From assembly GCA_973895155.1 (NCBI GenBank), contig OZ316896.1, positions 682,001 through 746,000 of the forward strand: a DNA stretch of 64,000 nucleotides, given 5' to 3'. Shown here piece by piece: positions 28,271-53,011 of this stretch. How positions within the stretch are numbered: the first letter of the stretch is position 1; each line of letters opens with the position of its first letter. Source of the stretch: Marsupella aquatica. Its lineage: Eukaryota; Plantae; Marchantiophyta. A model generated the notes under the pieces. The model saw only the letters and a program-made list of their open reading frames with translations. It was not told the DNA's origin and searched no databases. The position numbers were made by a program, and so were the translations under genes.

Positions 28271-30465
28271 GATCACCGTACAATCTTGCCTCACGACGCG
28301 GGGCTATTGGTCCAATCGACCAAGTCTGTCATCTCGCCTTGGTCTCCATGGATTCAATTCTGCTGTTCTACAGGAGTTCTATAAAGTCTCCGATTGAGAC
28401 GACGTCTTTCCCAACAGGCAGTGCCAACTGCTATGTCTTAAACTGACTCAGGACGATGTTCCGCCAAGCAAACCTGCTCTGGTCAATCCACTAGCTCCAG
28501 GCTCACACTTCCTATCTCACACTTTCTATCAGCAGACTATCCAACCCGTATCCATAATTCAAACTGCAATCCAATCTTGACGCTCTGAAAGCAACCTTTC
28601 TTTCCTATTTAAGGTTGCAAGTTCCGGAGCAAATCTGTGATCAGCAGACCATCCATAACCGTATATATCGAGAATGTATTCGCATTGGAATCCAATCTTC
28701 GAGATCTGGGTGCTCTTCTTTTTTCTAATCAAACTTTGCAAGTTGCAGAGCAGAGACGTTTACTCAACTAGGTCCTAGGGAGACGGAACGCGCGAGACCA
28801 CGGATCCTTCGGTGAAAGGTCCAAACTCCAAACCTCAAAAGTCAGCCTAGCCATGTAAATTTCTGACGAAGAACAACACTTATTATTTGCGTCAGACTGA
28901 CGCATTTATGGCTCTAGAATGAAGACGTCTATTCTGGAATTGAATATTCTATCAAAGCTTCAACCGAATCAACCGAGCCGTTTTCGAAAGCGATCATCAA
29001 TTATACTGTAAACTAAACAACTCCTCCTGTCAGTTGCTCTTATAGTCTTATTGCTGTCCAGAGAATGACCATGCAAGGATCGAATGTCTTCACGAGTTCA
29101 CGGGGACCTGGCGAGTGGCGACATTGGCGACATTGGGCATCCCACTACTAATTAATAAGATGCACAGTCAGGTACGGAGTTCCCACTGTACTGCTTTGAA
29201 TAAATCAATTTATGTCATTTTTGTAGATAAGGGGCTTCACAAGGAGCCACACTGCCAGAGGGACAGAAGTATATTAAGTGGACCATGTCTAGATGGATGA
29301 AAGACTAGAGCACAAGTTTATGAGCTATATGCTTGTGAGGGACCCTTGCAGTGAGGTATATGCTTGATGATACCTTGCCAAAATAGATGTACTTGACAGG
29401 CCCCAACCAACTCAGAACACAACATCATGGCCAGGCTTGTATTCTAATTGTGGGCCATGCGCACTCTATTTAAATATATAGTTCACCTGGGCATTATATT
29501 CGAGTTTGACTATGTGTTTTCATTTTTTTATGTTCATTGTATTCAATTATTGATGAGCGTTTGAATATTAGCATTGGTATATGATTCTTGAACACAAGGT
29601 CCGGGCACGTTGTTAAAACTATGTTGTGTTTGAAGAAAAAATACTTTTCATATGGAGATCTAAAAAATTCCATTTTTGAACATGCAACAACCGAACACTG
29701 TGTTTGGGGGAAGATGGGAGGCCCCCCACACAAATCTCTGCCAATAATCACACATCAAAATGTGGTAATATATAGTGTGTATTCATAGATTTAAAGAAAA
29801 GTAAGAACAACAGTTATCATAGTATGGAGCGTCACACACTGTATATGTCATATTTTTGATGTGCAGTTTCCAAGACCTGACAAATTTTGTTACAAACTAG
29901 GCCCACAACATAGTTTCCATACACATGGTTCTTATGTGGTGCCTAAATGCATGGTAAGCCGTACATTTCCTATTGCAATCCATCGCACTTCGCGTCATAG
30001 TCCACTACGTGTACGTTTATGTTTGAAGACATAATGGATTATGTCTTCACATGATTACAGAATTTTAGAGGATCCATCACTACATGATAGCGGGTTTGTA
30101 CAACATTTAGTCTAGTTCTTGCAGCTAACAAAATGTCCCTGTTGGTATCTTAATTTGTTTCACACTTAGACAATTTTTAAAAGTTGCAACAAATGAAAAC
30201 ACCCAACTGAAGAGTAAAAGATACTTAGTTGGTTCCTTCCATACTTAGACAATTTTGGGGTCTAGATGTGAGCAGACTTTGTTCCACACTTCGGTAATTT
30301 TTTAACGTTGTAATAGGGACCAATGGCCAAAAGTAGAGGACTCATTCCATAACTAGACAAGAGAACAAAGAAAACATCAATTGAAAACATCATGCAAACC
30401 ATGTGCATAGGTTGCGTGACGGACAGAATGGTAGAAATTCAAACTTGAAGACATGAACAATTATT

Positions 30466-30806: not shown

Positions 30807-30935
30807 TATTTTGCCATTTGAATAAATATTGCAAAATCCCCCAAAACAATGAGTGAATCATGTGAGTCAAAGAACTAATAAATTCAAACAACTTTGAAGT
30901 GGAAGCATGAAAAAATTTACCTTTTTAATTGAATA

Positions 30936-31370
30936 TAGTTAACTCTATGTAAGTGCGCACTCTCAGGAAGACTGATTTGGCATGCACTAAACCAGGTGTT
31001 GCAGTCCTTGATAAGTGCACCCCCCTAAAAAGTGCACTTATTGAGAAGTGCAATTGTTTTAGAATCCTTTGTTAAATTTAGAGCCCCTTTGTTTGTCATT
31101 TAGTCTAGTTCTTTGTATCCCTCCCATAACTATGTGCCAACCCTCCTCAAGTGCATTCTATACTTAGTAAGGATGGGCATGCATTTATCCATAAATGCAA
31201 TAAATTTCATGATTTATGCATTTAACAATATGAGCATAGAGACACTTATCAAGGGTAAGTCCACGTACCTGAAGACCCTTACGTGCAATACCTGAAGACC
31301 CTTACGTGCAGTTGGAACGATGGGAGTTTAACAAAAACCCTTGCACTTATCAAGGGTAAGCACAAGTGCA
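30936..31370. mobile_element. Truncated duplicate of the 14000-14475 MITE
   Basis: Same left TIR (TA|TAGTTAACTCTATGTAAGTGCGCACTC), same upstream flank and same body to ~31260. Right TIR lost. Confidence 0.8.
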
Positions 31371-31686: not shown

Positions 31687-31815
31687 GGAGAGTCACTTAG
31701 GGGAGCTGGAGAGTCACATAGGGGAGCTGGAGAGTCACATAGGGGAGTTGGAGAGTCACTGAGAGGAGCCTGGTAGAGCTCTGGAATAAGCAAACCCCAT
31801 AGGAGAGTCACTTAG
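31687..31815. repeat. 21-bp tandem repeat (GGAGAGTCACATAGGGGAGCT-like) plus a 65-bp segment repeated at 54223-54287
   Basis: About four units 31687-31760. 31743-31807 matches 54223-54287 at 62 of 65 positions. Confidence 0.85.
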
Positions 31816-34168
31816 GCATTAGAAACCGAATGGGCATAAAATAAGGCCCTTAAGCCTTTGTAAAGGGCACCTGCCCAGATTTCTCCTTAATCTGCCCGAA
31901 AAACATTTGACGGATGAGATTAATTGCATCTAAGGTATCGTGAAAGGAATTGGCAAGCAGTTCTCTAAAGAAAGTTGGGATCTCTTTTGATTGTGGCGTA
32001 AGTACAGTACGTGTATGTACGTACGTAGATGTTGACAGGAATGCGGATCGTGAATGAGCCGACTCTGTCACTCCCTTTCCAAAGGAAACAGTCAAAATTG
32101 CATCTCGCGGGAGTGTTGCTGGCTTGCATGGAACTGACTTTTTGCGGGAGGAATGCCGAGGCATAGTGAATCATTTTTGAACCTTTCTCTCAACTGAATT
32201 GGATTTGAAGTGTTTGGTCAAATCCAATACCTTCCAAAGACAATCCGCGGGAGTGAAACTGAGGAGCGATGAGTAGAGTGTGCATCAAAAAGTAGAATTG
32301 AGTTGAATAGTGGAACATTGGAATGGTGAATTGAGCAGAGCGGTGCGATGGCGTCCCGATGGGCAGGAGGAATGTTGACAATGCCATACTGTGCAGCCAA
32401 AATGTATAAGATTGGGCAATTCTGCCCCGTGGGATTGTCATGGTTTTTGAGCTTTGTGAGTTTAGAAATAGACTAAATAGCTCCACAATTCAAGCATCGT
32501 TATGTGGTAGAGTTAGCGTCGACTTCAGGCCTTGCCAGTGCCATCAAATTGGAAGAGGAATAGTCTATTTTCCTGCTTTCAATTCACTCGCGACAGCAGC
32601 AATAGCTACGGGGAAGTGACTCGAGCGCAAACAAATTGTGGATGCGAAGATTAATTGAGCTTCCACTCGTGATCTTTCCATGCAAAGATTCAATAGCGAG
32701 GAGTGTGCACTATCGGGTAGCAAATTGCGAGGATCGGAGAAGCTGGGACCAGGATAAGATTCGCGCTGAGCCTTGGCCAAGAGTGAGCAGTGTTTGCACT
32801 GCCGGGTAGCAAATTTTAAGGATCAGCCACAAGCCTTTGTCGGCTTGCTGTGCAATTTTTTGCCTCTATTTACTTCTGTGGGCCAGGCGATAGATCAGGC
32901 GATTCTGAATTGTTGAGGTACGAGAATTGTCCAATTGTTTAATTTGTAGAAAGTGTTCTTGCACTTTTGGTTCTACACTGTGGTCATGTTCTCGTCATGC
33001 TGTGCTGTGTACAACTACATTGTCATGCTTTTCTCCTATTTGTGATGACCTGTAGCAGGGAATTTGTCGCTTGTGCTGCACGAGGTCTCCCAAGTTTAAG
33101 CCACGGACCATACTCGTCCAACGAGTCATCACATTTACAGGTATCCAATCTTGCCAATCATGCGGTTGTGCCCGGTTGCGTCTTTGACCAGGTTCAAGAA
33201 TTCTCTGCTTAGGTATGAAATTTGCTTTTCAGTGGATCCCTGATTTGCTCCGCTGATGAAACGAGGCCCAGCCTTTGCTTAGAGATCTAACCGGTGTGTA
33301 GGGGAGCAAGTTGGTGCAGCTGTCGGCCCTGAAGCAAATAGAGAGGAGACGGAGAAGCCTTTTGCACTTTTACTAAGAAAACATACAAAGCAGTGAGTGC
33401 GCATCCGAACTTCTGCTCAATTTGTTCCTACTTACTGAAAATTGTTTGGTTTAGTGTCGGCATTTACTGTACACAGGCTCCTGGTCTGCTACTGATGTCT
33501 GCTCTATGAATCTATGATACGCATCAGAATAATGGATGTCAGGCTAATGCATTTTTGTTTTTGAAATTTACAGGCCAGTAGCTGAGTAGCGATCCACGTC
33601 GAGTTAAGCTAAAGCTTGTGAGATTTTTACTGACCATTCTAAGTGAGTTGAGAGACAGAACTAGTGGCGACAAGTGGGAATGCAAACACTCCCGCATGGT
33701 TGCTCCTTGTTTTGTCACTCAACAAGCTTCCAATTACTACTCAGTCTCGTGCAAAACCCCTGTATTCATCATGGTTGCCATAAGGCCAATTTACATGGAG
33801 AGTTTCTATCCTGAGAATGCGACTATAGATACCCTATTTAACTTGGTCCCCTTAGTGGATAATTGATAACTCTTTTTAAACTCATGTTTACAGGAGTGTG
33901 TTTGGGAAGCCAACAATACCCGAATTGGTCTGCTTACACATATATTTGGACATTTCTTGAGGTTAGTGTAGACATAAAACCTAAGTAAAACCCCTGCTTT
34001 GCTAATTTATCGATTGAATGTGTCTAAACCTATATAATCCTTAATTGACTTGACTAGCCTAATGGCATGGTTTTTGTTTATGAGGGTACTAATACATTCT
34101 CATCAGAGTTTAATTCCTAGTACTGTTAATTTGATTTTTTAAAATTTGAAGTGAATGCTTAGGACCAG

Positions 34169-35851
34169 ATGTCAACTCCAGACCAAGCAAAAGACGCACC
34201 AGATGGGCACGGCTCAGAGGAGGTTCCAGCTATCATTGTTGGTGAACGTAGCATTCCAGGGAAAAATAAAAAGAGAAAGTCTCACTTGTCTAAGCCTGAT
34301 ATTGCTAAGAAGCAAAGACTAAATGGGGCCATTAGACATAAGTGGATGGCAACTTGGTACCTTAACCTTGTTAACATCAGCATGGTAGAAGATGAATATA
34401 GCACACCTGGAACTCCTTATGGCCTTCACATGTTTGTCCAATTTCTGTTTGAAATTGGAAAGGAGGCAATATCCGAATTCTTAGCAGATTTGATAGCCTC
34501 CGAAGGTAATATAGACAAAGCCAGCAAAGAGGACAACGCCTTGTTGGAGATGTGCAAGCAAGGTGCTTTGAATTGGAAACGCGAGTGGGCCCTTTGGTTG
34601 GATTCTGCAGAGAAGAAGGAGTGGATTACTACGGAGGAGGGGGCATTAGTGTGGGGGGTGTTCACAACTGATGAGGCTTTCCTGACCAACCGCAACACTC
34701 TAGCTGAGGAGATAGAAGGGTGGTTCAATGCATCAAGTGGGTCTACAGGAAGAGTGGTGACCCAAAGACAGGTTGATGAGCCCATTACAGACCCCTCCCT
34801 TACTTGTATCTCATTGAAGGACCTATACTCTCCTTGGGATGATAGTTCACATATTTGCAGTGATTCTCAACATGATTATCACCTTGTCCGTTTTGTTGGG
34901 GTGCATCTTGTTAACTTATTTGGAGCATCCATGGTGTATGTGGCCAAACGCTTTAAGAGAGTTAACTATGAACGCCATATCTTGCCTCAACACCGCATGT
35001 TTTCAGAAATGCAGGTTTGTGGGGTAAGGATGTGTGGATTAGTTAACCCTGTAGCCATGATAAATGATTATGAGTGTCCAACACTCATTTTTCCATACTG
35101 GAATGGAGGGACATTGGAAGACATGTTGGGCCACTTGAGGGAATTTCAAAACAACCGAATGTTGAGATTCAATGAGGCACCAGAGCAAAGATTGGCCATT
35201 TTTATGGACAGTTGCTTAGAGATTTCCCTTGCCCTTTTAGAGACACTCCGATGTATGCATTCAAAGGGGTGGCTTCACAATAGCCTGCATGCTAGAAACA
35301 TCCTTTTACATTTTCCAACATGGCAATGGACTAAAAAGGGAGAGCAAAAAGTGACTGGGACCACTGATCTTGTGTTTGTTGGCATCTCAAACTTTGGAAG
35401 ATGTTGCAAAGTCACGGGAACAAAAGAGGACTGGGCTCCCAAGTTTGGAGAATGGAATTGGGAAATCAACCCAGTTGGCCCCCCTCGTCACATAGCCCCT
35501 GAGTTGTATATGGGGGAGAACAACCGACTTTCTCCCTCTGACGGGTCAAGATTTTACACTGAGCTCACTGATGTCTATGCTCTTGGCACCTCAATTAGAG
35601 GGATGTGCAAAAACTACTTTGAAGGTTGGGAAAGGGTGCATTACATTGGTTGGCATGATAGATTGGATCATACACAGGCCTTTAGAGATAAGAAGGGAGT
35701 GGCAAGTAGGTTAGTGCATCTTTTACACCGTTTGGCACATCCAGACATGAAGATTCGGAAAACAGCAAAGACTAATGCAAGGCAATGGAAAGAGGATCTG
35801 GGTGTGAACTCTAGAAATGTGTATAGGCCATTGGCTGGATGGTTTACTTAG
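34169..35851 (+). CDS. Protein kinase-fold protein, probable pseudokinase (560-aa ORF; may have upstream exons)
   Basis: Ordered subdomains YVAK, FPYWNGGTL, MHSKGWLHNSLHARNILL, ISNFG, HIAPE, TDVYALG. The catalytic-loop Asp and the DFG Asp are both replaced. Basic patch KNKKRK near the N-terminus. Possible acceptor (CTTAG) just upstream. Confidence 0.8.
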   Translation: MSTPDQAKDAPDGHGSEEVPAIIVGERSIPGKNKKRKSHLSKPDIAKKQRLNGAIRHKWMATWYLNLVNISMVEDEYSTPGTPYGLHMFVQFLFEIGKEAISEFLADLIASEGNIDKASKEDNALLEMCKQGALNWKREWALWLDSAEKKEWITTEEGALVWGVFTTDEAFLTNRNTLAEEIEGWFNASSGSTGRVVTQRQVDEPITDPSLTCISLKDLYSPWDDSSHICSDSQHDYHLVRFVGVHLVNLFGASMVYVAKRFKRVNYERHILPQHRMFSEMQVCGVRMCGLVNPVAMINDYECPTLIFPYWNGGTLEDMLGHLREFQNNRMLRFNEAPEQRLAIFMDSCLEISLALLETLRCMHSKGWLHNSLHARNILLHFPTWQWTKKGEQKVTGTTDLVFVGISNFGRCCKVTGTKEDWAPKFGEWNWEINPVGPPRHIAPELYMGENNRLSPSDGSRFYTELTDVYALGTSIRGMCKNYFEGWERVHYIGWHDRLDHTQAFRDKKGVASRLVHLLHRLAHPDMKIRKTAKTNARQWKEDLGVNSRNVYRPLAGWFT

Positions 35852-36218
35852 GTGATAGACTCGTACATTCTAGGTGGCTTAATTTGGACAGGATAGGCTG
35901 TTTTATCGGCAATGGATGTGGCCGACAAAAAGTTACTTTGTCTATCATTATACATTAATGAAGTATATTTCATTGTTGACCACCTATTGCAAAAGCTGGT
36001 GAAAGGACAATTGCCGGCATGCCAGTTTTGTATTATTAAGGATTTTTGCCTTAAGGCACAAATGTTCCATGCCAATGTTGTATGTTTGGGGTGCATGTAT
36101 GGGTGGCTTGATCAACTGATGAGGGTGATTATTTTAACTGCCAATATGAGTTTTATTTCTGAGTATGAGCTTGCCCTATGGCTAATGAAGATATGTTTAT
36201 TGTACTCTCTTATACAGA

Positions 36219-39045
36219 ATGATGGCCTTGGCAGATGTCACCAACAAATGGGGCAAGGCCTATGAAATTCACTTTTCAGTGGATCCCAAATTTGCTCCGC
36301 TGATCAAACGGGGACTCAACATTGATTTACAAACGCAAAAAAAGTCTTTTTCAACAAAAAGGGAAGAGGGGTGCACAAATCTTGACTTGTGGATAGATGG
36401 AGGCATATACCCTAGAGATCCAAGGACTAACTTAGCTCCCCCATTCACCAATTTAAAAGAACTTGTGGTCTTCTTTTGCCTTGGGAAAAATGGGTTTTAT
36501 GGGTATGCCCAAAGCCTTGCACAAGAGCATGACAGAACTCGTGAGAGAGAAGAACATGCTCTTGCCATCAAAGGCCTAGAAATTGATAAGAGTGTTTTAT
36601 TAAAGGATAATCTTCAGTCAAGGGTAGAAAATTTGGGTTTGTTGGCGAAGATAAGGTCATTGGGAGATGACAAGGAGCAGATGTTAGAGAGGATTACTGA
36701 GCTAGAGGAAAGCTTAGCAAGACAAATACAGGTTGTGCAAGACCTGAACCTGGCACATAGAAGAGCATTGCAAGGCAGGAGCAAAGTGTTTGCTTCATTG
36801 CGATACAAATACGAGAAGCTGTTGCGAGATGGACAGGTTCGCAAAAGGAAAAATTTGACAGAGCTTAGCCAAACAGGTGGGCATGCAAAGAAACTGAAAC
36901 GCCAAGTTCGTTCCCTACTACAAGCAAGCACAACGAAGCAGGCTCAGGAACAGAATGCAGCAAGTGGGACAAAACAACACTTTTGTGGAGATGTTGATGC
37001 ACAAAGGCATAGTGCTATCTTAATTGCAAGCATGTTGACAAAAAGGGAGAAGGAATATATGGTGCAACAACCCAACATGACAACAACAATTGTGAAGGCC
37101 ACAAACAATTTACTCACTGAGGTTGGAGATCATGTCCAAGCTAGTGATATGTTGGCTGCGTGTGACACAACAGGTGTATCTCAAAAGGATTTGCTGCAAT
37201 CCGTAAAACTTTGAAGAATGGCTTCAAGGTTGTGCATCCACAATTGAAGCTTGCAGCTGCTGTTCCAAGTTCACATCAAGTGACCAAGTTGCGGACAGAG
37301 TACAATGCAAACCTGTCGCAACTCATTGGTGACTACAAAAGCCTACAAATGGAGCTTCCGGATGCTCCAACATCAAAAAAGGCCAAAACCACTGATGGTT
37401 CCAAACCAAAGAAGATATTGCTAAGTGACAAGAATTCTCTATTCGTTGATCTTGAAGTGGTTCAAAAAAATATGGTCAATTTTTATGGAATCACTAAGGA
37501 GGAGATTGGTGAAGCTCCACTACTTTTTGTGCTCAAACTTGACAAGGCAGAGATTGTGAAAAATCAGAAGTTTGAAAGAGTCTCCATCACCCTTATGAAT
37601 CGAGCATTGGATAGCACAATCCTACATGATGATCCTCGATACTTCTCGGTGCAATCCGATCGTGATATTTGGCCTGTGGCTTGCTTTGAGGTGGCAAAGG
37701 AGTCGCATGCACAACTTAAATACATCTTTGGTCATACATCATTTCCAATGGTCATCGAAGCACAAGAAGCAGGGAAGTTGCTGCAAGTCCCTGGAATGGG
37801 GGAATACAAAGTGGAATGGCATCTTACAGCTGACATGAAGACAATTAAGTGCATGTATGGTTTGCAACATGGTGCAAATGCCAAACACTCATGCATATAT
37901 TGTCTTCAAGAGAAATCAAGTAAAGAAGCACTGGGGAGTGATACTGCTGCAAAGAAAGCTGCTAAACTTCGACAACAACCTTCTTGGAAAGGTGGGCTAT
38001 TCTCCACATGTTTTGGAGCTGAACCTAGCCGTGGGACCTCAACTGATGTTGTTTGGGACCCAATATTTGCAATACCATTGACAAGGGTTCACATTTGCAC
38101 ATTGCATGCCAATGTTCGAATGGTGGAGAAAATTTTGCATCTCCATTTCATGTTTGTTTGGAACATGCAAAATAAGGGTTTGCAAGTGAAAGCCATACAA
38201 GAAATGGAAGATTCTTTGTCATCTGCCGGAGTTCATGGAGGTAATGTGCGAATATTCAAAGATCCAAATCTTTCGGGATCAACAGGGAGTGTCCCAAATC
38301 GACCTAGCATGAATGGAGCGCATGTTGCTAGGTTATTCAAAAGAAGCTCATCGTCAGATAAGGAGAAAGTTTGGATGGATATATGTGCCGCTGATAATCA
38401 TAATGGGCAAGGCGGAAAATTGTCTAGGATGCGCATGTGGAAAGCTTACGAGGAGTTGCAACCATACCTCACTGGGCTAACCTTGACTGCCTCACAAAGG
38501 GTGGCATTCAAGGACAAGATTGAGAATTGGGGTCGGTTGTATATTGAAGCCTTTGGTGAGCACCATGTGACTCACTACATGGTAAGTGGCTATATTATGA
38601 GTAACCCTTATTTGCATAATAGTGCCATAGATAGACACCGCAATATTTTAGTGAGAACTTCCATCAGTTGTTCCTGGCTACATCAATAAATATCGTGAAA
38701 GTATACTGGCATTATATCTAATGTTGGCTTTGCCCACAACTCTTCTGATGATTGCAGCATGTTTTGGTTCGGCATGCGCCTTGGTTTGTGGACAAGTATG
38801 AGAGTTTGTCAGTTTGGAGTTCTCAAGGTATGGAAAAAAGTCACTCATCAGCTAAATCAGCATACCAACGACACACACAACATGGTGGCACAAAGAACCG
38901 GACATCACCAGTAGTGCAGACATTTCAACATTGGTACCGTATTATACAACACCGAGAGAACAGCAAACTGAAACTTGCACATGCAGAGGACACAATATCC
39001 CATGGTGTCACAATGACCAATGAAGAAGATGAGAGTGCAATGTGA
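36219..39045 (+). pseudogene. RAG1/Transib-like DDE transposase with N-terminal coiled-coil region; 1-nt frameshift near 37185, intron 38582-38757
   Basis: Joined product reads ...CDTTGVSQK/GFAAIRKTLK...VPSSHQVTKLR...FVLKLD(37541)K...WHLTAD(37832)MK...CIYC(37892-37903)...ICTLHANVRMVEKILH...VTHYM|HVLVRHAPWFVDKYESLSVWSSQGME(38833)KSH. Intron is GTAAGT...TTGCAG, phase 0. Confidence 0.8.
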
Positions 39046-39479
39046 CCTCTTGAAATAGTCAACTGATGCACAATAGTTTTCATTTACTTGTGGCAAGAGT
39101 GTACATTGAAGTAGATCATCTTTACATTCCTGAGTAGCTACCTACTATGCCATGGAGTAAGGATGGCATGGCTTTGTTTACACTGGGCATACTTTAGGAG
39201 CAAAAAGTGACCAACGAAATAGGTTGCAAAAGGCTGTTGCATTTTATTGATGATAGATTCATAGACCTACTAGCTAGCTAGGCAGCTTTACACATGACTT
39301 GCAATGTGGTCCTACACTTTTTTAATGCGGAGAAAATTTCCTTCGCCAATGTCCTGGACTAGCATCACCTTCTCCTTCCTTGCATTTATCTGCAGATTCA
39401 CAAGTACTGAAGTCATCAATTATAGTTGAATGGTAAGGGTTAAAAAAGTGAATGACACTAGAAGAAAACAGGGCCCTTT

Positions 39480-40200
39480 ATGACCAATCATCCAATGACG
39501 GAAATGAATCAATGACCAAAATTGCTAATGACACAAAAAGAATGACGGGAGAATGACTGTCCACAATGACCAATAGACTGAAATGACAAAATGATAACTT
39601 TTGCGTCATTTTGTATAATGTCTGTAATGACTGATGCGACCAAAATGACACAATTTTCCTAAAATGGTCAATTTAGACACATGTCCTAAATGACCCAATA
39701 AATAACAACCATGATAAATCAGTGTTTAGCACCATTATAGTCGCTTTGGACAATGATTGAAATGACCAAAAATCTATTTGGGTCATTTTGGACAACGGTG
39801 ATAAATGACAAAAATATATTTCTGTCATTTTAACCAACGGTGTTAAATGACAAAATCTAGGGTCACTCTCAAAATAAGAATATATCAGTGTTTACAACAA
39901 CATACCGTCATTATGGACTTCTCTCATAAATGACTAACTCTAGGGTCAATCTTGAAATTAGCATATATCAGTGTTTACAACAACATACTGTCATTATGGA
40001 CTTGTTGCATAAATGACTAAATATAGGGTCAATCTCAAAATCACGATATATCAATGTTCACAATAACATACAGTCATTATGAACTTATTGCATAAATGAC
40101 TACCTATAGAGTCATTAAAGAACCCAAGAGATATCAAGATTAAAATACTCAATAGTCATTCCAGACACCGGTCATAATTGTAGAGTCATTGAAGAATGCC
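39480..40200. repeat. GTCAT/ATGAC motif array directly downstream of the transposase
   Basis: Dense ATGAC motifs. Five consecutive GTCAT-N18-ATGAC inverted pairs at ~39782-40100, partly within ~81-83-bp tandem units. Confidence 0.9.
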
Positions 40201-43200
40201 AATGACTGCAATAAGGATAATGTCAATAGTCATATTAGAGGTCATTTTGACCAAATGACTATATAAGTAGTCATTCAATACATCCCTCATGGTGTCATTG
40301 TGGACCACCATAAATGACAATTTTTGGTCTACGAGCTTAAGGTGGGCCCGAGTGTGTAATGACTGCAGTTGTGGTCATTTGAGGGGTCCCTTGTGTAGTC
40401 ATTAAGCAAAAGCACAAATGACCAGTTTGGGGCTAGGGGCAGGACGTGGGCCCTAGAGTGCCATGTGGCCCCACATAGAGGTGAGAACCCCTCCACTGGG
40501 TGCGGGACACTATACTCATCATTGTCCAACCACTAGTTGCGGCATTAGCAATTTGAACACATGTCTTTGCATTTACTTAAGGCATGATGCACCTTTGGGG
40601 AAATCACTCCCAAGTCGTACGACTTTGGAGTGATTTGCCAAAAGTGTCACCATGGATGCATACCATCACATCCAAAGGCAAATAAAAGTTGTTTTTGGGT
40701 TCTCCAAGAGGTAGTGCTACACCAATGGAATGGGCAGGGGAGTCGTGCTTCCCTGTATGGTGTGGGTGCAGGTTTAGGGTAATTATAGGAATATTCCAAT
40801 TTTGCAAGGAATCTAGAGCGGGCTCTCTTTGGAGGTACTAGGGCCTTTATTGGGTCATATGTGAGCAATGGACCGTCATAAACGCCAATGACTACAAGTA
40901 GGGTCATTAAAATGGTCACATTGGATGTCATATAAGCCAAATGACATGAATTGTGGTGATTTGAGGGGTCCCTTGTGCAGTCATTTAGGAGAAGCACAAA
41001 TGACCAGTTTGGGGATAGGGACTACATGGGGGGCCAACAACCCCTTCACAAGGTGCTGGACACTCTACTTACTATTCTCCAGCCAGTAGTTGCACCCATC
41101 ATTAATCTTGAGACATGTTTTTGTGTTTACCTAAGGTGTTGATGCAACTTTGGGGAAATCACCCCCAAGTATACAACTTTGGAGTGATTTGCCAAAAGCG
41201 TCATCATGGATGAATATTTTATGTTCCAAAGGCAAATGGAGCCATTTATTTTGTTTCTCCAAGAGGTAGTGCTACAACAATGGAATGGGCATGGTTGTGG
41301 TGCTTCCCTCTATGGTGCATATGCATGAGGGTTTAAGGGTTTAGGGTTTTATTCCACTTTTGCAAGAAATCTAGAGTGGGCTCTTTTTGGAGGTACTAGG
41401 GCCTTCATTCCGTCACTTATGAATATACTTGTCTCAAAAATACCAATGACTACAAATATCGTCATTATGTACCAGCAGAAATGATCCTTTGGGTCTAGGA
41501 GCTTTGGGTGGGCCCTAGTGTGCCATGGGGCCCTGCATGAAGGTGGCAACCTCTCCACTAAGTGCGGGACACTATACCCACTATTGTCCAACGACTAGCT
41601 GCACCATGGAGCCATATTTTTTTGTTTACTTAAGGCATGATGGAACCTTGGGGAAATCACTCCCAAGTCATACGGCTTTGGAGTGACTTGCCAAAAGTGT
41701 CACCATGGTTGAATTTCATTGATCCAAAGGCAAAGGAAACCTTGTTTTGGGTCTCCAAGAGGGTAGTGAAACACCAATGGAATGGGCGTGACAGTGGTGC
41801 TTCCCTCTATGATGTGTGAGATGTTTAAAGGTATAGGAATATTCCAATTTTACAAGGAATCTAGAGTGGGCTCTCTCTGGAGATACTAGGACCTTCATTG
41901 AGTCATTTTTTAACAAAGTCGTGTCATAAGTGCCAATGACTACAAGTAGGGTCATTGAAATGGTCATATGGGATGTCATATAAGTCAAATGATTGGACTT
42001 GTTGTCATTTGAGGGGTCCATAGTGCAGTCATTGAAGACAAGCATGAATGACCAATTTGGGGCTAAGCATTGGAGGTGGGCCCTAGAGTGCCATGTGGCC
42101 CCACACACAGCTTGCAACCCCTCCACTAGGTGCAAAATACTATATTTGCTATTCTCCAACCACTTGTTGCACCATTAGCACTTTGAAGCCGTGTTTTTGT
42201 GTTTACTTTAGGCATGATGGAACCTTGGGGAAATCACTCCCAAGTCATACAACTTTGGAGTGATTTGCCAAAAGTGTCACCATAGAGTCATACCATCATT
42301 TCCAAAGGAAAATTGAGCCGTTTGTTTTGTCTCTCCAAGAAGTAGTGCAACGCCAATGGAAGATTGTTCTCCTTCTATGTAATTGTGTGATTTTTGTGTT
42401 GGTGTTTGATGGGGATAAGTCTCTGTTTGGCAAAGAATAGTGTTGGGGCATTGTGAGTAGGTGTTGTAATCTTCATTGGGTCATTTTGGAGTGATGGTGT
42501 GTCATTAGTGCCAATGACTGCAGTAAGAGTAATTTTGGCAGTCATATTGGAGGTCATTTGGACCAAATGACTGTATATGTGGTCATTAGTGAGGTCCCTC
42601 ATGGTGTCATTATGGACTAGCATAAATGACCCTGTTGGGTCTAGGAGATTTAGGTGGGCCCTAGAGTGCCATGGGGCCCTACATGGAGCTGACAACCCCT
42701 TCACTAGGTGCGGGACACTATGTACTCGTCATTCTCTGACCACTAGTTGCGCTATAAATATTTTGGAGCCATGTTTTTGTGTTTACTTTAGGCAAGATGC
42801 AACTTTGGAAAAATCACTCCCAAGTTATACAACTTTGGAGGGATTTGCCAAAGTGTCATTATGGATGGTACCTTCTTATCCAAATGCAAATTAAAACATT
42901 TTTTGGTCTCTCTAAGAGGTACATAGTGCAACATCAATGGAATGGGCAAGGTCGTAGTGCTTTGCTCTCTAGGGTGTGTGTGCGGGTTTGAGGTAGAGGC
43001 TAGGAATATTCCAATTTTGCAAGAAATATAGATTGGGCTAGCTTTGGAGGTACTAGGGCCTTCCTCGGGGGTCTCACTATATGGATGCCTCCCCATCACC
43101 TGCAACATTTTTAGGCCTTGGACCCCCTAAAATGTAAGAAAAAATATTTAATTTTCAACCCCTATAAAGTTGGAATATTTGATTTAAGAGACCCAATTTT

Positions 43201-44700
43201 TCTTCTCAGAAAATTCTTAAGTCTTCCCTTCAAACCAATAAAATAACCATCTACTTTGTAGCACATGATGTGCCATTTTTGTGAAAGTGAAACCCCCGAA
43301 GGGTCTTCATTCGGTCATTTGTGAACCATTGCATGTCATAATTACCAATGACTACATGTAGGGTCATTGCAATTGTCATATGGGATGTCATATGTGTCAA
43401 AAGAATGTATTTGTAGTCATTAGAGGGGTCCCCTGTGTAGTCATTCAGGATTAGCACAAATGACCAGTTTGGGCTAGAGGTTGGAGATGGGCCCTAGAGT
43501 GCCATGTGGCTTTACATAGAGCTAACAACCCCTCCACTAGGTGTGGAACACTATATTTACTATTCTCCTACCACTAGTGCACCATAATTAATTTTGACGC
43601 ATAGTTTTGCATTTACGTAAGGCATGATGCAATCTTGGGGAAATCACTCCCAAGTAGTATGACTCTAGAGTGAATTGCCAAAAAGTGACAATCAATGGAT
43701 ATCACTTATCCAAAGGCAAATGGAACCCTTTTTTTTTGGTCTCTCCAAGAGGTAGTGCAACAAGAATGGAGGGTTGTCGTCATTCCATGTAACTATGTGA
43801 TATTTGTATTGGTGTTTGGATGGGGGATACTCTGTTTTGCAAATGAATAGTGATGGGGCATTCTGAGGCGTTATTGTAATCTTTATTTGGTCAATATGCA
43901 ACAATGGTGTGTCATTATGAAAATGACTCAAATTGGGGTAATTTTGACTGTCATATTGGAGGTCATATGTACCAAATGACTGGATATGTGATCATTAGAG
44001 AGGTCCTCATGGTGTCATTATGGACCAGCACAAATGACCCTAGCTTGTGGTTCTAGGAGCTTTTCGTAGGCCATGATGAGTGAAGGTCCATTGAGTCAAA
44101 CGTACATTTATATTTATGTATGAACTTGTAAATTACATTTGACTTACAGTTGTCTAGCTTTTTTAATTGGTGGACACAAAGGCATGATGCAAATTTTTGG
44201 GGAAATTAAATCCCTCCCAAGTCATACCACTTTAGAGGGATATGCCAAAAGTGTCACGAAATAGGGGTATCACCTCATCCAAAGGCAAATGGAACTGAAT
44301 TTTTTCTCTACTAGGGGTGTTGCCACACCAATGGAAGGGTGTCGTCCCTGTGTTTGCCTTGGTGGTGTTTGTGGGGTGTTAGGGGTTGAAATATTATTTT
44401 CATTTTGCAAAGGAATATAGAAGGGGCTCTATAGATGGCCCTTTATTGGGTCATTTGTGAACAATGGGGTGTCATAAATGCCAGTGATATGAAAAATGGT
44501 CATTAGAGCTGTCACATTGGAGGTCATATGAGCCAAATGACTGCATATGTGGTCATTAGAGGGGTCCTTCATGATGTCATTTAAGACCACAAAAAATGGC
44601 CCATTTGGGACTAAGGTCTAGAGGTGGGCCTCAAAGTGTTGTGGAGATCTACATACACCACACAACCCATGTGAAGGATGCGGGGCACTATACTTGTTCT
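40200..44700. repeat. Diverged tandem satellite, ~570-bp unit, about 7-8 copies
   Basis: Landmark GGGGAAATCACTCCCAAGT (some copies diverged) at ~40597, 41152, 41650, 42227, 42807, 43637 and 44199; spacings 555, 498, 577, 580, 830, 562. The 830 interval includes a MITE. Confidence 0.92.
43065..43299. mobile_element. Mutator-type MITE inserted into a satellite unit
   Basis: TIR TCGGGGGTCTCACT / AGTGAAACCCCCGA. Flanks AGGGCCTTC(C) and AGGGTCTTC(A) form a 9-10 bp TSD. Sister units carry a single ACTAGGGCCTT(C/T)ATT site. Confidence 0.85.
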
Positions 44701-47700
44701 TATTTATTGGTGGCTCTTAGTGCAAGAGTTATTTAACTATAGCATTAATTTTGGAATGAATATGACTATGATACCGTCACTGAATGATACCATTTAATTG
44801 ATGCATTTGACTAATCTGCGAGTCTTGACAAATTTTGATCTAGTGCATACACATAGTTTTGAGAAATAACCCATCACCCAAAAAATTGCCTTAACATACA
44901 TTATATATATGCAGTCATGTTAAGTGGAAAGGGGAAATGTACTACTAAAAAATTAATGGAATTGTATCCATGCGTTTACAAAATAGACAAAGGTGTCATT
45001 TATAATGACATGATCATTGTTTTTGTCATTGAGGAGCATCAACAAAGCATATCTTTTAGTCTAGGGTCTAGTGGTCCTACGTACAGTATACACCACACTA
45101 CCCAACAAGAGGATGTGGGACAAAAAGCTAGTCGATCTTGGATGAGTATTTTCATTGGGATTCCCTTGAAGCCATACTGTAGCAATTCCATATCCTATCA
45201 AAAGTCAGATGAATTTGGGTACAGCTCAGCCAAAATTCTGTCCAAACAAGTATCAAAAGAAGTACCACCTTTACGGATAGGTTTGATAATCTAAAATAAT
45301 AGATGGGTACCACATTTTAGAATTTGTCATGCACAGTAGATAATTAATGTTAGGTGGCAATGTTTTTTGACAAGTACCCCAAATAAAAAAATACCCAATA
45401 TTTTCCCCTTTTCCTGCAGGGTTTGGCATTCAATTTCAGAATGCCCTTCCGGTAAAATCTACTACTCAACAAGGTGGCTTACAGATCTTGGAAAGGGGGT
45501 AAAATTGCTGGTTTACACCTCCTTTGCACCCCATTTACAGTTGTTTATAGGGTTTGTAAGTCAGGACTTACACTCTTGTAAATGTGATCACTCCTTCTTC
45601 TTTCTAATTCATTTTTGAAATTCAACCCTTGCACTTCAAAGGTCATCCAAATTGACTCGGGTTCACTCTAGGTTCTAAAAACCAGCTTTACAATGGTTTA
45701 TAGTCAGTTTACAGGTCCATAAGGAGTGATTTACAGTGTAAAACGGCTTTAACTACTTCCCTCTGTATTTTCAAAATTCCCACTCTTGAAAATAGTTGCG
45801 CGCGCTCAGTTCTTTGGGTGCTGCCAGACCTTCAAGCTCTCTAGCCATGGAGACTGGACTTAGTGCCCTATCACTCCGGTTGTATCATGACAAAATCTCT
45901 CAGTTGTTCTGCCCTCCCAATGTTTCCATAGCTTGATCCAACCTTCTCCAGCATGCTGCTAGATTCTTTCAACTACTGATTATTCCTTTGCTCCACTCGA
46001 CTCTGCAGATGGGCTTTCAATTTGACGTCTGTGCTATCTTTGTTGGCAGGCTCGTGCACATATGGACCGTCAAATCACTGCTTCAACTGGTATCAGTGTT
46101 CCCTGGTTTGTTGTGCTTTGCTGCAATCAGCCATTCTTTCAATGTCCGAAGCTGGTCATGCCTCCAATTGCAGCTATGCCCTTACTTTGCAATTTCCAAT
46201 TTGAACTGTGGGAAGATAAATTGAGTTGCTGTATCCATGAATGCAATGAGTCAGCAGCGTCCGTCTGAGCAGACTTTTTCATGACTTGCGAAAAGCTACG
46301 GGTCTCAATGGAAGGGATGCGACTCAGGTGAAACACAATGTTCGAGTGTTCTGGTTGCGGGAAATGTTCAAAGCTATGGAAATGGTTTGCGTATGCTTTC
46401 CTGGGCAGAAAGGCCCGAGTCCAGCCTTAATGTTGACTTAGCTGTAATTAACTGCAAACTATTTTACACTAGGTAGAGATAGTCGTAATTTGAACCTTCG
46501 GTGAGTACAACGGTGACGGAAATGACAGATTTCAGTGGAGAATTGATTGTAATTAATTAGGTGGCTGGCTGTAGCTGCGGGCGCCTTGCTATTGCACCCC
46601 AATCTCCCAGCTTGGAGCTGCATTGAGCTATATATGATCCCCTTCTCTTTTCTCCAGGCAGCCGCTGCCATCCACTTAGGTTTTGCCATACAGATTTTGG
46701 ATGCAACTGGCCAGTTTAATTGCTCATCTATCTTCCACGAGATTGATTTTACATTCGGTGCTGGTACTTGACCTCTGATATTCATCCCCGAATCAGTACG
46801 TCCTTCATTGCACTTGTAGTTTCTAAGTTTGAGACATTATTTTCTTATACAAGACAGTCACGTACAGTAGCCGAATCAGCTTGTTGGTTATAAATCTATA
46901 AATGATTGGCTCTAAGAATTGCCAGCAAGGAGGTGGATGGTAGATAGAGTGAATGGCCAAAGCAAATTCAATCAAAGACCTTGCTTTATTCTTCTGTGTT
47001 TCAATCTGAGTTGATGGGCCACAGTACTTTTCAACTCTTAATGCCCAAGGAAGTTGGACAAGGGACGTCTCTTTTTCAGCTTGGGACACTTTTTTGTTTC
47101 CCTTTTTCAAGTCTTGAATTGCTCAATTCGTAAGTGATGTCTCCTGCCGCATGCACTATCTGGATCTGCCTTGCTTTTTAGACAAGTTAACTTTAAAGGA
47201 TATCTCTCTTTATTGTATCTGCTTTTCTATTTAAGACAGCACTGTTTCCACTACTTGTCTCCCGGTTGAGCTTCGTTTTTATTACCCATTACAATCTAGA
47301 CCAATTTTCTGTCCAGGTGCATGTCAAAGTTGTTGTTTTGGATTTATTGGTGAGTCTTCTGCCCACTTGAATAGTATTTTCACCCGGGCCATCAAACGTT
47401 TTTGTCAGCTTTGGGAACAGTCTAGCTTGCCACCATTGGTAAGTTGGAGCTCCTCTGAGTATGTTTCATCGTCCTTTAATTTCCTCATTGTCCTTGCTTC
47501 TATTAATTCCATGGTGTTGGTGGGATGTAGCTTCTCAAGACATTGCAGGTCCTTTAGCAGAGATTTGGGAGGAGCGAGTCTCTTGATCAGGTCTCTTCAA
47601 GTGGCCTCAGTGACTAAAAAGCAAGGTAAGGCTTTTACTTTGCTTTGCTGCATTGGCAGAGTTTTTGGCTGGTGTGTCTGCTCTGGTGAACTGAATAATT

Positions 47701-49649
47701 TCAGAGTTTGAATCCCTTTGCAAAAGCTCAACAAATTAAATATTGGAGCATTTACTATGTGCAACATGGGACAGAGGAGAATGAGGAGTATTACTATATA
47801 CTTCTTCTCTACTGCTTTTAGTCGATTGAAAGCTGCAAGTTATTAATTGTGTCATTGTAACATTTGACAGAACCATATGATAGCCTGTGGGATCCTCCTT
47901 CGCTAGGAATATTTTCTGATTCAGTAATTCTAGCAACTAATTACTATTGCAGAGACATCTCTCTATATCCCAGGGCCATCCTAGAAAAGGCGCTTATGTT
48001 CCCTTCTCCAATTTTTAATCCATCCTGGTTTCTTTCATTGCAGGATATGTCCAATTCATTTGTCCAGATTGTAGTATATATTGTATTGATAGTTGAAATT
48101 TTATATTGCACATAGTGTCAATGGACATTTCAGATCCAATAAGATCTAGTGAGGACCTGGACAAGGACACAGTTTTCCAGTATCATGAAGCTTTCAAATA
48201 TCAAGTATTATGAAAGTCTATAAATTTTAGCAAAGCACCTAATTGCATGTCCTGCATCCCTTTGTTTGACTTCAAAGGATTTACTCTAACCAATAACCAA
48301 CTTCATCGTTGACTTGTTCACTTGGTTTTTTTGGATGACGAGCCAGGAAGGAATCTACTTTTTATGTGAAATTCTGGTAGGGACAGATGCTTTGATAAAA
48401 AAAAATTTAATGTTTTGTTTTGTACTTGCTGGCAGTGATATATTTGAAATGATTGTCAAAGGACTTGAGGATAAAAGGTACCATTGGTCCCTGTGCCACC
48501 CTAGAAAGGTGCAGTCCCTTCTCCAAATTTACTTATTGGTTTGGTCCCATTGCTCGACTTGCGTTCTTGCACTTTTGATGGGTACTAGATATTAAGCTCT
48601 TGACTAGGACCTAGATAAACATGAGTAAGTTGCTGGCATTGTTTATGTTCAACTTTGGTGACAAGAGGATATTTTTGAGAGGCCTTTTGGTAAGTCTGGC
48701 ATGCTAATTTAGAATTTCAATGTTGGCTGTCATCTTTGCAAAGATCCTGCAACCTGAAGACTCAAATGATATGTTATCTCATGATGGAAAGAGCAGAATT
48801 CAGATACTTGTTAGTTTGCGATGACAATAATTAAGGCTAGCTTACCAATGCAATGTTGGAATGAACTGGACTCTGGATGCTACAGTGGGATGGAATTGGA
48901 GGATCTGGCCAATAATTTTGATGAGGGCAAGAGAATGTTGATAATGGAGAGCTGAACAAGTTCCACAAGCTACACGGAGGACGAAGACTTGTGGGCAGGT
49001 ACCTCTTGGAATTTATAACAAGTACTTGCCTCTCAGACAATGCCCGCAATACAGGATCACTAGAGTGTGTTATTTTTTCATGTCACTTATTTTATTGTTG
49101 TAAGTTATGTCTAACCAGTTGCAGCCAACATTCTAATAGTCAATACTGCATATAATAGAGACATATTGAGAACTGCAATGTCTCACACCTTTTGTGTGTT
49201 GTACAGGATTTTCTTTGTATCAATTGTACATAGTGATTAATTTGTGGTGAGCAAGGAAAGTCACTCTTAATTAGAACATTTCTGATAGAGTTGAAACACA
49301 ATAAGCTACCGTAGATTGCTAAAGATAGGCTACAGGATTAGATGGTCAAGAGTGCCCTCATTCCATTGTAGATGCATTGATTAAACTATCCAAATTGTGT
49401 TTCCCACATAGCTTTTCAATCATTGAGTCATGAATAAAGCATGATTTCTATTTGGGTCTTTCAAAATACATCTATGAGTAACTTCCATTATCTTTGGATG
49501 ATTGTATTCCTTATGTAGAGATGTATGATTTGTCATTCTATATGTATTATGCATTTATCATATTGAATGTCATCCGTTATCATTTTTTAAGTAACATCTA
49601 GTGATTTCCTTTTTTTAAAGATGCAATAGAAAACTTCTAAATACATGAG

Positions 49650-50330
49650 TGTCAAAATGACACCCTCCATGACACTCAAAATGACATTATAAATGACGGT
49701 GCCTTATGACATCCAAAATGACACCGTGAAATAACATATTTAATGACCCCTTATGTAGTCATTTTAGCCATGACAATATGACATCTGTAATGACTGTCCA
49801 AAATGACTGATTGACTTATGCAATGTGTCGTCACTTAACTTGCTTAAACTAGGGTCACTTTGGACATATCCGAAATGACAACAAAGTTTCTCCAATGTGC
49901 TATGAGAGAATGATCCACATGGCGGCTAATGATTCATCACATCTTTAGTCATTTTAGACATGTCTGTAATGACAAGAAATTATTGCCACATGTTGATCAC
50001 TAGAGATGTCATGTGTCTGTATTTCATTCGCTCAAAATATGGGTCATTTTGGACTTGTCTGAAATGACATATTATTTGTTTAGTCAATGGACACGTGGCA
50101 TTCTGTTATTGGTGACGGTGACCGTCAACAATGAACGGCACAAGACCGTCGATGATAATTTTTTACGTCATTTTGGACCGTTAGTCATTTATGACCCAAA
50201 AATATTAGAGTCATTTTGGACAATAACAAATGACCATGAGACTTTTGGGTCATTTGTCCGATATGACCATGACGCATTTGTCCAATGCAACGTGTCTGGA
50301 AAGACAGAATCAAATGCGTCATTATTTTGA
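49650..50330. repeat. Second GTCAT/ATGAC motif array, directly downstream of the BAH-like gene
   Basis: AAATGACA repeats and GTCA(T/C)TTT(G/A)GAA/C-type pairs with 15-16 nt spacers, for example GTCATTTTGGACTTGTCTGAAATGAC at ~50043. Confidence 0.85.
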
Positions 50331-50411
50331 TGAAAAGACCAGTTGGGTTGTCATTGTTGCAGTCATAAACAACCATGTTTTCTACTAGTGTGATTAGAAT
50401 GTGACTTTTAG

Positions 50412-51740
50412 TTAAGCTGCACAAAATAGTATACCAATTACCTTCTCCCAACGTCCCTTCTTTGTTGGCCTAACAATGCCAAACAGGAAAGTAGTCTCAG
50501 CATCCTCTGAGTTGATGTAGAAGCACACTTCTTCCCGCAGATCTCGTAAGCCCCAATTTTTTCCAACATCCAAGTTCACATGTGTTCCATCAAAAAGTTC
50601 AACCTCTAGGTCCATCATTTCAACAGCATTAGCTTGGTCCATTGCAACCCACACATCTCGCACAAGCCGTTCACGCACATAACCAAAAGTCACATACAAC
50701 ATTTGTCGTCCCACATGGTACCTAAAACCAATCGATGGTCGAAGAACATGACACTTAATAATGTCATTTGCAGCCTCAATTTTAACATCCCAACCTGGAT
50801 CCATTAGAGATGCAAGTAGGGCTTCAGAAGCTGGTTTGAAGACACACAAGGTCTTAGTTTGACGCATTCCCATACCCCCTTCAACATTAAAAAGGTCTAT
50901 CATGATATGGATTGGCATGAACCAACTTACTCTACACACACGGCCACCTGTACTTGATTTCATTGCCAAATGGAAGTCCCCAAAGAGTCTAGCACGAAAT
51001 GATTCACTGCTGCTCATATCTGGAACTGGCCACGAGGGATCTTGGAATGGAGGAAGAGGTATAGCTGTCAAGGTTCCAAACTTCCCTTTTTTCAAGGGTG
51101 GTATATAGGCCGCATCATAAAACAAGATGCCAGAATGTAGCAACTCCTTGTGGGTTCGAGTTCCTCGAGTGGCTTCACCAATCACTCCATGTCGCACCAC
51201 AACCACATCCAAAATAGAAATTGGGTCTTGCCAATCTTCACACTTTGTTGGATAAATATCTGTAAAGAACAATACAAGCAAATCAGTTAGACTTCCACCA
51301 AATACTAGTGGCCCAAGATAGTCATATAACCTAATGTCCAACATGGGATTAACTATGGAGGCCTCACAGAATCACTTACAATTCAACCGGTTGCTTGGTA
51401 CCCCATGAGAGTTTGACTTGACTTGCAATTGGCGATGATAATATGCATGTGACACCAAAATTGATTGTATTGATGATGAACCCGGAGTAAACTTGAAGTT
51501 TTTGACTTGGCCAACAATATCTTGTTTGGCCCATGGCCCTCTTTTTGGTGGGTTCAAAGTAACCCATGAACCTTTATCAATTCTTTTGGGAACCCAAACA
51601 TCATTGTTGTCCCTCTTGATGTGGATGAGGACTGATTGGACCTGTGAGCGAGGGCGCTTCGTCATGAAAGCTGAGTTGTACAATATTCCACAATAGTCTG
51701 CATGTTGGAGTACACCCAATCTTTGACATAAGTGACTCAA
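50412..51740 (-). CDS. Spliced gene: putative BAH-like domain plus C-terminal ubiquitin-like (beta-grasp) domain; ends uncertain
   Basis: Exons ~51720-51380 and 51259-50442 join in frame over a GTAAGT...TTTACAG intron: IDKGSWVTLNPP...DIVGQVKNF...ILVSHAYYHRQL...NY|IYPTKCEDWQDPISILDVVVVRH...LFYDAAY. C-terminal part reads LEVELFDGTHVNLDVGKNWGLRDLREEV...FLF. Confidence 0.6.
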
Positions 51741-53011
51741 TTACATGTGGCATTTTATGTTTAATTTCAAGTCAAGAAATATACTGATTTCACCCTCCGA
51801 GTATGTCCAAAATAAAGGGTGGAATAGTGGTTTGGTTGGTTTAAGTATTCACCCACATTTTGATGTTCAATGATGATATGTAATTTCATTTAACTTTCCT
51901 TCATCAAATCCTTGTTCCACATGTTTTGGTTCACTTTGAATAGATTGTACAGACTCATCACACCTGAGGTATTGAAATAGTAACCTTCAGTACATAACAA
52001 ATCTGGGGTCCCAATGTTAATCAAATTTAATTTAATTAAACATGGGGTCCAATAGGCACATTCAAGTAGGAGATCATAGTGTTTAATAGGCAACTAACTT
52101 TCTAGATGGATGGGTACAGTTTGGTTGCAATATCCAGAACAATATATTACGGCACCCTGGATATGGAAAGTGGATTATTTTTGGCTAGAATGGACCTCAC
52201 TATTTGCCAAAGGCAGGCCGCCGTGCAGCCGGTTTTCCATTTGCAAGGGCTACTCATTGGGCTGAAGTGCCTTAACATGCCCCGCGATATACTATTTGCC
52301 GCAATGGCGAGTGTAACCTGACTGCTAAATGAGTCACGGTTCTACACGTGGCATTTTGAGTCGTGCCGATAAGCGGGGACGAGGGCTGGAGTTGCGAGAG
52401 ACGGAAGCGACGACACAGATGTAGCGACCGTGACTTGCAGAACCACCACCAGGATCGGCAGCGTCAAAACGCCACCGCCTGCTCATCTCCATGGCTGCTC
52501 GCTATTGGGATTGATTGTTCCTACACAACCCAGCAACCTCGATGGACAAAAATTGATCAACGCAGTAGGTGGATCGATCGGTTTCCTACACGACAAAGCA
52601 ATGTCGAAGGACCACTGCAAATGGATGTGAATCCGAGCGCAGACGAGGACAGCATGGTGAGTCGATCAATCGAAAGAATAGGAGAGGGTTATTAGTTTGG
52701 CACGAGCTTGCTTCAATCAAACTGGAGCGGAGTGTTGGGTTCAGGAGAGCTGCAGAGCATAGCAGAGGAGAAGAGAGGAGAGCCTGAAAGGAGACGTCCT
52801 TCATGAGTGACTTGACCGGAAGCAACCTTGGGTGTGCGAATTAGATTCACTCATCCCTTGTCACCGCCTGTCATGTCTCTCAGTTGGAGACTTGAATTCA
52901 AGGTGTGGACTGCCAACTAATGGTTTCTATAAGAACACAACCGGCAGCATGTGCAATTCAACTTCAGTCAGCTCTCACCTGCAATTACACTGGGTCTGTA
53001 ACCAAAGCATT

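Follow-up and report, generated by a model that had tools for sequence, protein, structure and literature searches.

A transposon with three genes and sharp boundaries in the liverwort Marsupella aquatica, from an apparently unnamed plant lineage related to RAG1/Transib

RAG1 is the enzyme that assembles antibody genes, and transposable elements of the RAG1 type are known mainly from animals; plant genomes were reportedly free of Transib in a survey of 2005. The subject of this study is a transposon on contig OZ316896.1 of the liverwort Marsupella aquatica (GenBank assembly GCA_973895155.1; positions 682,001 to 746,000 of the forward strand, a stretch of 64,000 nucleotides referred to as the window). 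The element has sharp boundaries and three genes, and belongs to a RAG1/Transib-related plant lineage that apparently has no name so far. RAGL elements, including ProtoRAG, have the layout TIR-RAG1L-RAG2L-TIR (TIR, terminal inverted repeat), with the two genes tail to tail (PMC7204232). Transib carries one gene, ends of the form CACAATG...AAAAAAATC with an invariant CAC and an A-rich nonamer, and a 5-bp target-site duplication (TSD; PMC1131882). According to PMC12730594, similarity to RAG1, ends of the CA..TG type and the motifs C(2)C and H(3-4)H are common to all CMCT lineages, PlavakaB has CATCA..TGATG ends and a TSD of 2–3 bp, and chromatin-acting cargo is known from other transposon lineages. 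A 2022 study, whose figure legend names no plants other than seed plants, reported 39 plant Transib-like proteins and invoked horizontal transfer (PMC9435367); one of its supplements gave no match for six non-seed plant genera. A survey of 1007 plant genomes found active elements of seven superfamilies, not Transib, by a Pfam-based screen (PMC12973397), which would miss the window transposase. A description of the present family was not found in the literature searched, nor was a report of a RAG1-type element with BAH/ubiquitin-like or histone-H3-like cargo; the scope of this search did not extend to Repbase and most subscription papers.

The outer transposon extends from 31817 to 54223 (22,407 bp; 11,469 bp without a nested CACTA element) and contains all three genes, in the order pseudokinase (+), transposase (+), and a three-exon gene for a BAH/ubiquitin-like protein (BAH-Ubl, −). 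We lean, with slightly better than even confidence, towards an 11.5-kb cut-and-paste transposon enlarged to 22.4 kb by CACTA, in which a RAG1/Transib-type transposase would cut bipartite CATTAG ends and BAH-Ubl would be a dispensable helper in dealing with chromatin, binding methylated histones and shielding the element against host silencing. The features are as follows.

31687–31816, no strand: host tandem repeat with units of 21 bp (GGAGAGTCAC), forming the left half of the target that the element interrupts (Tandem Repeats Finder; an intact upstream unit matches the rejoined flanks)
31817–31854, plus: left terminus, bipartite, with CATTAGA, a spacer, and GGCCCTTAAG ending at base 38 (same design 5' in six related loci)
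33214–33266, plus: remnant of 53 bp from a copy of the 5' coding region of the transposase, with 89% identity (sequence comparison)
34169–35851, plus: pseudokinase open reading frame (ORF), 560 aa, VAIK Lys retained, HRD Asp and DFG Asp lost (HNS / NFG) (Pfam Pkinase E 1.9e-7; motifs)
36219–38581, plus: transposase exon 1, with a frameshift in the A-run 37183–37186, and D126, D223, C243/C246 and H314, numbered from 37166 (homologs, predicted fold)
38758–39045, plus: transposase exon 2, after a 176-bp GT-AG intron, with H473, H478 and catalytic E498 (matched in 23 of 34 related loci)
39312–39389, minus: BAH-Ubl exon 3 (tblastn with the Calypogeia homolog P0090)
39456–50390, no strand: nested CACTA (En/Spm) element, 10,935 bp, with CACTAG(A/T)AGAAAAC ends, TGA target duplication, GTCAT/ATGAC subterminal repeats and internal repeat units of ~575 bp (ends, motif density, depth)
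50442–51259, minus: BAH-Ubl exon 2 (homologs, spliced model)
51380–51665, minus: BAH-Ubl exon 1, start of the predicted BAH fold (model of homolog P0090, fold match)
54186–54223, minus: right terminus, reading CATTAGAAA, its second block resembling the left one only weakly (breakpoint and contig stops)
54224–54287, no strand: host tandem repeat again, forming the right half of that target (the repeat resumes at 54224)

The boundaries were identified from the interrupted host repeat, of which 65 bp form a direct repeat across the element (31743–31807 and 54223–54287, 95% identity). At the two breakpoints stands a perfect inverted repeat of 9 bp, CATTAGAAA at 31817 and its inverse at 54223, with no third occurrence in the window; the chance of an exact 9-mer inverted repeat at both breakpoints was ~8e-6 per placement. 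In public sequencing runs X2 and X3, the alignment of a contig from a diverged copy stopped exactly at 54223 (29 differences and 32 gap letters over 53905–54223), and the X2 contig ran on for ~1 kb beyond this position. The original prediction had placed the element at 31809 to 52313; its left boundary was within 8 bp of the true one, and its right boundary was wrong. An exhaustive scan for CA..TG ends (at least 10 matches in 16) gave no convincing pair for a boundary near 52313 among the rows listed, and its top rows also missed the true pair. That the three genes form one mobile unit was upheld on other grounds than the shared motif array originally invoked, namely because the TIRs stand at the breakpoints of the interrupted host repeat. 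The flanks read TTAGG/GGAGC (GG/GG at the junction) and the intact repeat units have GGGG in three of three cases, so that the single insertion examined has a TSD of either 0 bp or, if the G run was shortened, 2 bp. A single contig from run X4 matched five bases past the right end (54224–54228) and then diverged, a possible hint that certain targets are preferred. Contigs nearly identical to the element had a depth ~2–4 times that of the contig to its right, a hint at recent copies, dispersed or tandem.

The terminal design recurred in a set of 34 metagenome loci with related transposases. Six of these carried, on the plus strand and 430–860 bp upstream of the transposase N-terminal motif, CATTAGG followed by a spacer of 19–22 bases and G(G)CC(T/C)TGTAAG; the expectation in shuffles was 0.04 hits, for a pattern drawn after the loci were seen, and the pattern was absent in three of the nine loci with at least 500 bp upstream. 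The second block ended at base 38–40 in all seven left ends (window and six loci). The left ends have the geometry of recombination signal sequences (RSS), as in Transib ends and the 23-RSS (PMC1131882), with a different and new sequence. None of the 34 loci yielded a right end. The likeness to Transib concerns the predicted fold (Z 11.7) and a terminus of ~38 bp in which a 7-bp block is followed by a spacer and a second block (the latter weak at the right end of the element in the window), whereas the termini are CATTAGG...CCTTGTAAG (CATTAG(G/A)...CC(T/C)TGTAAG in the window and the six loci) rather than CACAATG, the TSD is 0 or 2 bp rather than 5 bp in the one insertion, and there are two or three genes rather than one. 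Compared with PlavakaB, the outer element differs in its CATTA..TAATG ends, and its TSD length would be compatible.

A search for homologs of the transposase yielded 89 proteins, of which 68 were aligned with the window protein. Its predicted model (predicted local distance difference test score, pLDDT, 86.8) matched RAG1 best (Z 15.4, 375 residues aligned, root-mean-square deviation 4.9; Foldseek E 1.8e-9), with BbRAG1L (Z 14.1), HzTransib (11.7) and the P element (7.3) among the other matches. Besides H314, the protein keeps the DDE triad D126/D223/E498 and the zinc ligands C243/C246 and H473/H478, which together with the predicted RNase H fold with a ZnC2/ZnH2 insertion are the marks of a RAG1/Transib-type enzyme; the RAG1-like transposase proposed originally, seen at 36219–39045, was thus borne out by a predicted fold. 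The spacing of H473, H478 and E498 is identical to that of RAG1 residues 937, 942 and 962, which we take to be the ZnH2 histidines and the catalytic Glu; the structural alignment reaches only 937. In the ESM Atlas, RAG1 clusters ranked first (0.96) for an intron-less relative (L004) and were the nearest named clusters, a result in favour of the RAG1/Transib side. Neither sequence nor profile searches against PDB sequences gave a match for the transposase. In Pfam, the window protein had no match and no transposase family was among the 25 listed of 62 weak families for 69 homologs; Tnp2 (Transposase_21), whose distant members can be missed, was likewise absent from both. For the KDZ domain, likewise, no Pfam match was listed; the fold and Atlas matches point to RAG1.

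At position 127, next to the first catalytic Asp, the window copy has a Lys; in 59 of 60 aligned rows the residue is Glu. Over the frameshift, contigs from X1 and X3 showed one gap each, which would fit an open frame there if the gap lies at the frameshift. Judging from the frameshift, E127K and the loss of one BAH cage aromatic (see below), the window copy looks decayed and is probably dead, and less damaged copies appear to be held by related genomes. Named species among the relatives of the element proteins were Klebsormidium nitens, Adiantum nelumboides and Calypogeia fissa; no relatives were found in the viral contigs or prokaryote genomes searched. One transposase cluster (P0032) consisted of near-identical proteins on many long contigs (53–657 kb), which suggests a recently expanded family in some genome.

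In our estimate, membership of the element in a CMCT lineage that has already been catalogued from mosses, liverworts or ferns (e.g., EnSpm, Plavaka, Lanisha, Chapaev or Mirage in Repbase) is unlikely. The outer element does share with CACTA and its allies (Mirage, Chapaev, Plavaka, ESTA, Lanisha) the CA..TG ends, a multi-gene content with introns, and CxxC and His motifs that fall between the second Asp and the Glu. The match of a predicted fold to RAG1 is not exclusive, because other CMCT lineages also resemble RAG1, and this search cannot rank CACTA, Chapaev and Plavaka transposases, which were absent from the listed structure matches; no structure of these three is known to have been solved. 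The outer element nevertheless lacks CACT(A/G) ends, a 3-bp TSD, subterminal arrays of its own and a Pfam transposase match. Against a catalogued CMCT lineage speak also the RAG1 clusters nearest in the Atlas and the conserved second end block at bases 30–40, a design of the Transib/RSS type (PMC1131882).

The nested element has the hallmarks of CACTA: it opens with CACTAGAAGAAAAC at 39456 and closes with the inverse of this sequence at 50390, has TGA at either side, and carries subterminal repeats. The reported enrichment of GTCAT/ATGAC was real, with 16–36 motifs per kb in 39456–44700 and 49500–50390 vs. 2.1 per kb outside. Contrary to the original prediction, the two convergent genes do not both end in this array: the transposase stops at 39045, before the array, and the minus-strand gene crosses it to reach exon 3 at 39389–39312. 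The array as a shared gene end tying the genes together was therefore ruled out, the arrays being part of a separate, nested CACTA. Its insertion site is the last intron of the BAH gene, which measures 114 bp without the insertion. X2 contigs stopped at 39452 and started at 50391, and contigs from X3 and X4 aligned from exactly 50391, with extra letters that did not enter CACTA. From these contig edges we infer that CACTA-free alleles exist, the joint itself being absent among the rows listed. No coding gene was found inside the CACTA by ORF scan. Contig depth over its repeat-rich parts reached hundreds of times that of the surroundings in the four public runs, depth being no measure of copy number. 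Within it lies a short high-copy element (43064–43248), with many contigs having loose ends at both sides.

Discounting the CACTA, the BAH-Ubl stop codon lies 266 bp from that of the transposase, tail to tail. The spliced model (51665–51380, 51259–50442, 39389–39312) encodes 393 aa, is free of stops and is 63% identical end to end to P0090 of Calypogeia. The N-terminal part of the predicted P0090 model matched the BAH domains of EBS (E 5e-4) and AIPP3 (Z 10.1), and 49 of the 50 structures listed for it are BAH-bearing proteins, AIPP3 being the best (DNMT1, MET1, ZMET2 and DIM2 are counted as BAH-bearing). A 104-row profile of the family matched the BAH domain of BAHCC1 (E 0.013) and, C-terminally, ubiquitin-like domains (E 0.07–0.5). 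The proposal of a BAH-like/ubiquitin-like gene on the minus strand was accordingly confirmed for the predicted N-terminal fold, with a weak C-terminal match (best E 0.07). A match of the middle part of the profile to ZW10 (E 0.002) was taken as chance. In methyl-lysine-reading BAH domains (EBS, SHL, AIPP3, BAHCC1) the aromatic cage is Y/W/Y; the predicted cage positions of BAH-Ubl are aromatic-His-aromatic, conserved in 40 of 45, 41 of 47 and 46 of 50 rows. The leads that the ESM Atlas returned for the BAH homolog were Ubl/SUMO-like and all scored under 0.9. A profile search found 378 relatives at 50%-identity clustering, with no named host counterpart, and C. fissa has 12 BAH-family proteins on at least 11 scaffolds (told apart by scaffold length), i.e., dispersed. 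Contigs in X1 and X2 held diverged copies of the transposase (141 differences in 769) and the BAH-Ubl gene (79 in 545), consistent with a second whole element; no listed contig joins the two genes. In a protein of 593–594 aa (P0110 and its cluster), an N-terminal extension that contains a zinc ribbon is attached to a BAH-Ubl family sequence; the cluster has 29 members, most of the 15 listed being on ~2.2-kb contigs, and is possibly a domesticated host gene.

The kinase-like ORF of the original prediction was recovered at 34163–35851 (Pfam Pkinase) and, both catalytic Asp residues being absent, encodes a pseudokinase. The cassette is bracketed by 53-bp copies of transposase 5' sequence (33214–33266 and 36261–36313). 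Close homologs were limited to two (P0097 and P0098, 57–58% identity) among four matches, and P0097 likewise lacks both catalytic Asp residues. Since the 53-bp copies flank the cassette and a kinase gene would not fit into the six left-end loci, the pseudokinase was likely acquired late and in this sub-lineage specifically, with a scaffold role or none. The same two observations, the former resembling a capture scar, would fit BAH-Ubl and pseudokinase being passive captured cargo, Pack-type-like, with no role in the life cycle of the element. We consider this quite improbable, as the BAH gene is whole, spliced and alike end to end with its liverwort homolog, its family is large and has no named host counterpart, and the pseudokinase frame has stayed open relative to two homologs, one of which shares the loss of both Asp.

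Among the 13 of the 34 related loci that have at least 600 bp downstream, seven carried a convergent gene X, four a histone-H3-like gene, one another gene (also in L027) and one none. Gene X encodes an acidic protein of ~600 aa on the minus strand downstream (L009, L010, L014, L023, L025, L026, L029), without a Pfam match; a domain of this protein is also present in L024 and, joined to a BAH-like part, in P0239. The H3-like genes lie directly downstream of the transposases on the same strand (L004:2129-2704, L005:1675-2226, L021:3633-4436, L015:2628-2888), have divergent tails, matched Pfam Histone in three cases (E 7e-34 to 3e-18; L015 is a tail only), and are possible transposon-borne histone variants. 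In a transposase tree covering 31 of the 34 loci, H3-like cargo was placed in two separate clades. The transposase family thus has a changing partner slot that often holds chromatin-related genes, a trait with parallels in VANDAL/VANC, TET/JBP-bearing fungal elements and SET-bearing HarbingerS, whose predicted chromatin-acting second gene also changes between lineages and whose transposases belong to superfamilies other than the RAG1 type.

A possible, though less probable, alternative is that BAH-Ubl is a functional RAG2 analogue, which would bind the transposase, tether it to marked nucleosomes and set the insertion site. The convergent gene order with closely spaced stops is that of RAGL elements (PMC7204232). 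The alignment of 375 residues to RAG1 vs. 301 to HzTransib fits, judging from aligned length, retention of ZnB, a region tied to RAG2 binding (PMC9435367), and the X4 contig sharing five flank bases is a weak hint at target preference. The same transposase family is, however, found with at least three other partner genes in differing orientations, and the six left flanks of related loci showed no clear common target motif. This variety of partners favours a dispensable helper over an obligate RAG2-like subunit. Co-folding of the transposase with the Calypogeia BAH homolog spoke neither for nor against a complex (score 0.00, with alignments unused and partner fold uncertain). The originally proposed ProtoRAG-like pairing was retained in part: the predicted RAG1-type fold, the BAH/ubiquitin-like reading, the bipartite ends and a convergent second gene with a predicted histone-reading domain inside the TIRs agree with RAGL/ProtoRAG, and the analogy is weakened by the other partners and by the 34 loci, none of which has a BAH or kinase gene. 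Further differences from RAGL/ProtoRAG are a BAH and ubiquitin-like partner instead of their kelch and PHD, a terminal CAT instead of CAC, no 5-bp TSD, a sequence identity of ~13%, a swappable partner and the extra pseudokinase gene.

The element would work like Transib/RAGL, yet differs from both in ends and TSD. The transposase would bind both end blocks of the CATTAG termini and, by analogy with RAG/Transib biochemistry, may excise the element by a nick-hairpin mechanism before strand transfer. The BAH protein would read a methyl-lysine mark, its middle and ubiquitin-like domains might recruit or block host factors, and it likely protects the element against host silencing. Several observations weigh against this interpretation. 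The BAH model, made on the Calypogeia homolog, had a mean pLDDT of 37 (60–80 only in parts of residues 11–120), and Pfam BAH was matched by only one of 104 family members (E 0.017). The cage Trp is replaced by His throughout the family, and in the window copy the first of the three cage residues is Ile (Ile/His/Tyr). No TSD could be demonstrated, as the GG/GG flanks leave a run that intact units already have. Linkage of BAH or kinase genes was seen in 0 of 34 related loci, among which the four of the window clade (L001, L002, L017, L019; three of them in the tree) stop at most 284 bp past the transposase or before its end, and cluster look-ups gave no contig names in common. The evidence does not tell anti-silencing from targeting.

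A broader and doubtful version is that of an old unnamed RAG1-type lineage, from Klebsormidium to liverworts and ferns, with RSS-like ends of its own and a slot in which chromatin genes (BAH-Ubl reader, histone H3 variant, acidic protein) can be exchanged; in this family BAH would be an independently recruited RAG2 equivalent steering the transposase to marked nucleosomes. The changing partner genes bear on an open question of RAG evolution, why a RAG1-type transposase takes a chromatin-reading partner, with targeting, activation or escape from silencing as candidate purposes. An apparently native family of non-seed plants, whose bipartite ends are new and some of whose copies may be intact, would also offer a new enzyme for the study of end recognition, and possibly a tool. 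The histone-H3-like genes in sister transposons are a lead in their own right.

In the surroundings of the element, the window contains to the left two malectin-domain receptor-kinase genes, tandem duplicates with ~85% identity (1–9400 and 20017–29076), and to the right an intact, intronless gene for a DYW-type pentatricopeptide repeat protein (56727–59282, minus strand), a family of organellar RNA editing factors. Sequences resembling miniature inverted-repeat transposable elements, with long inverted repeats and a repeated element with inverted ends of ~29 bp, were observed at 9424–10400, 13878–14477 and 30814–31259, and 12358–13451.

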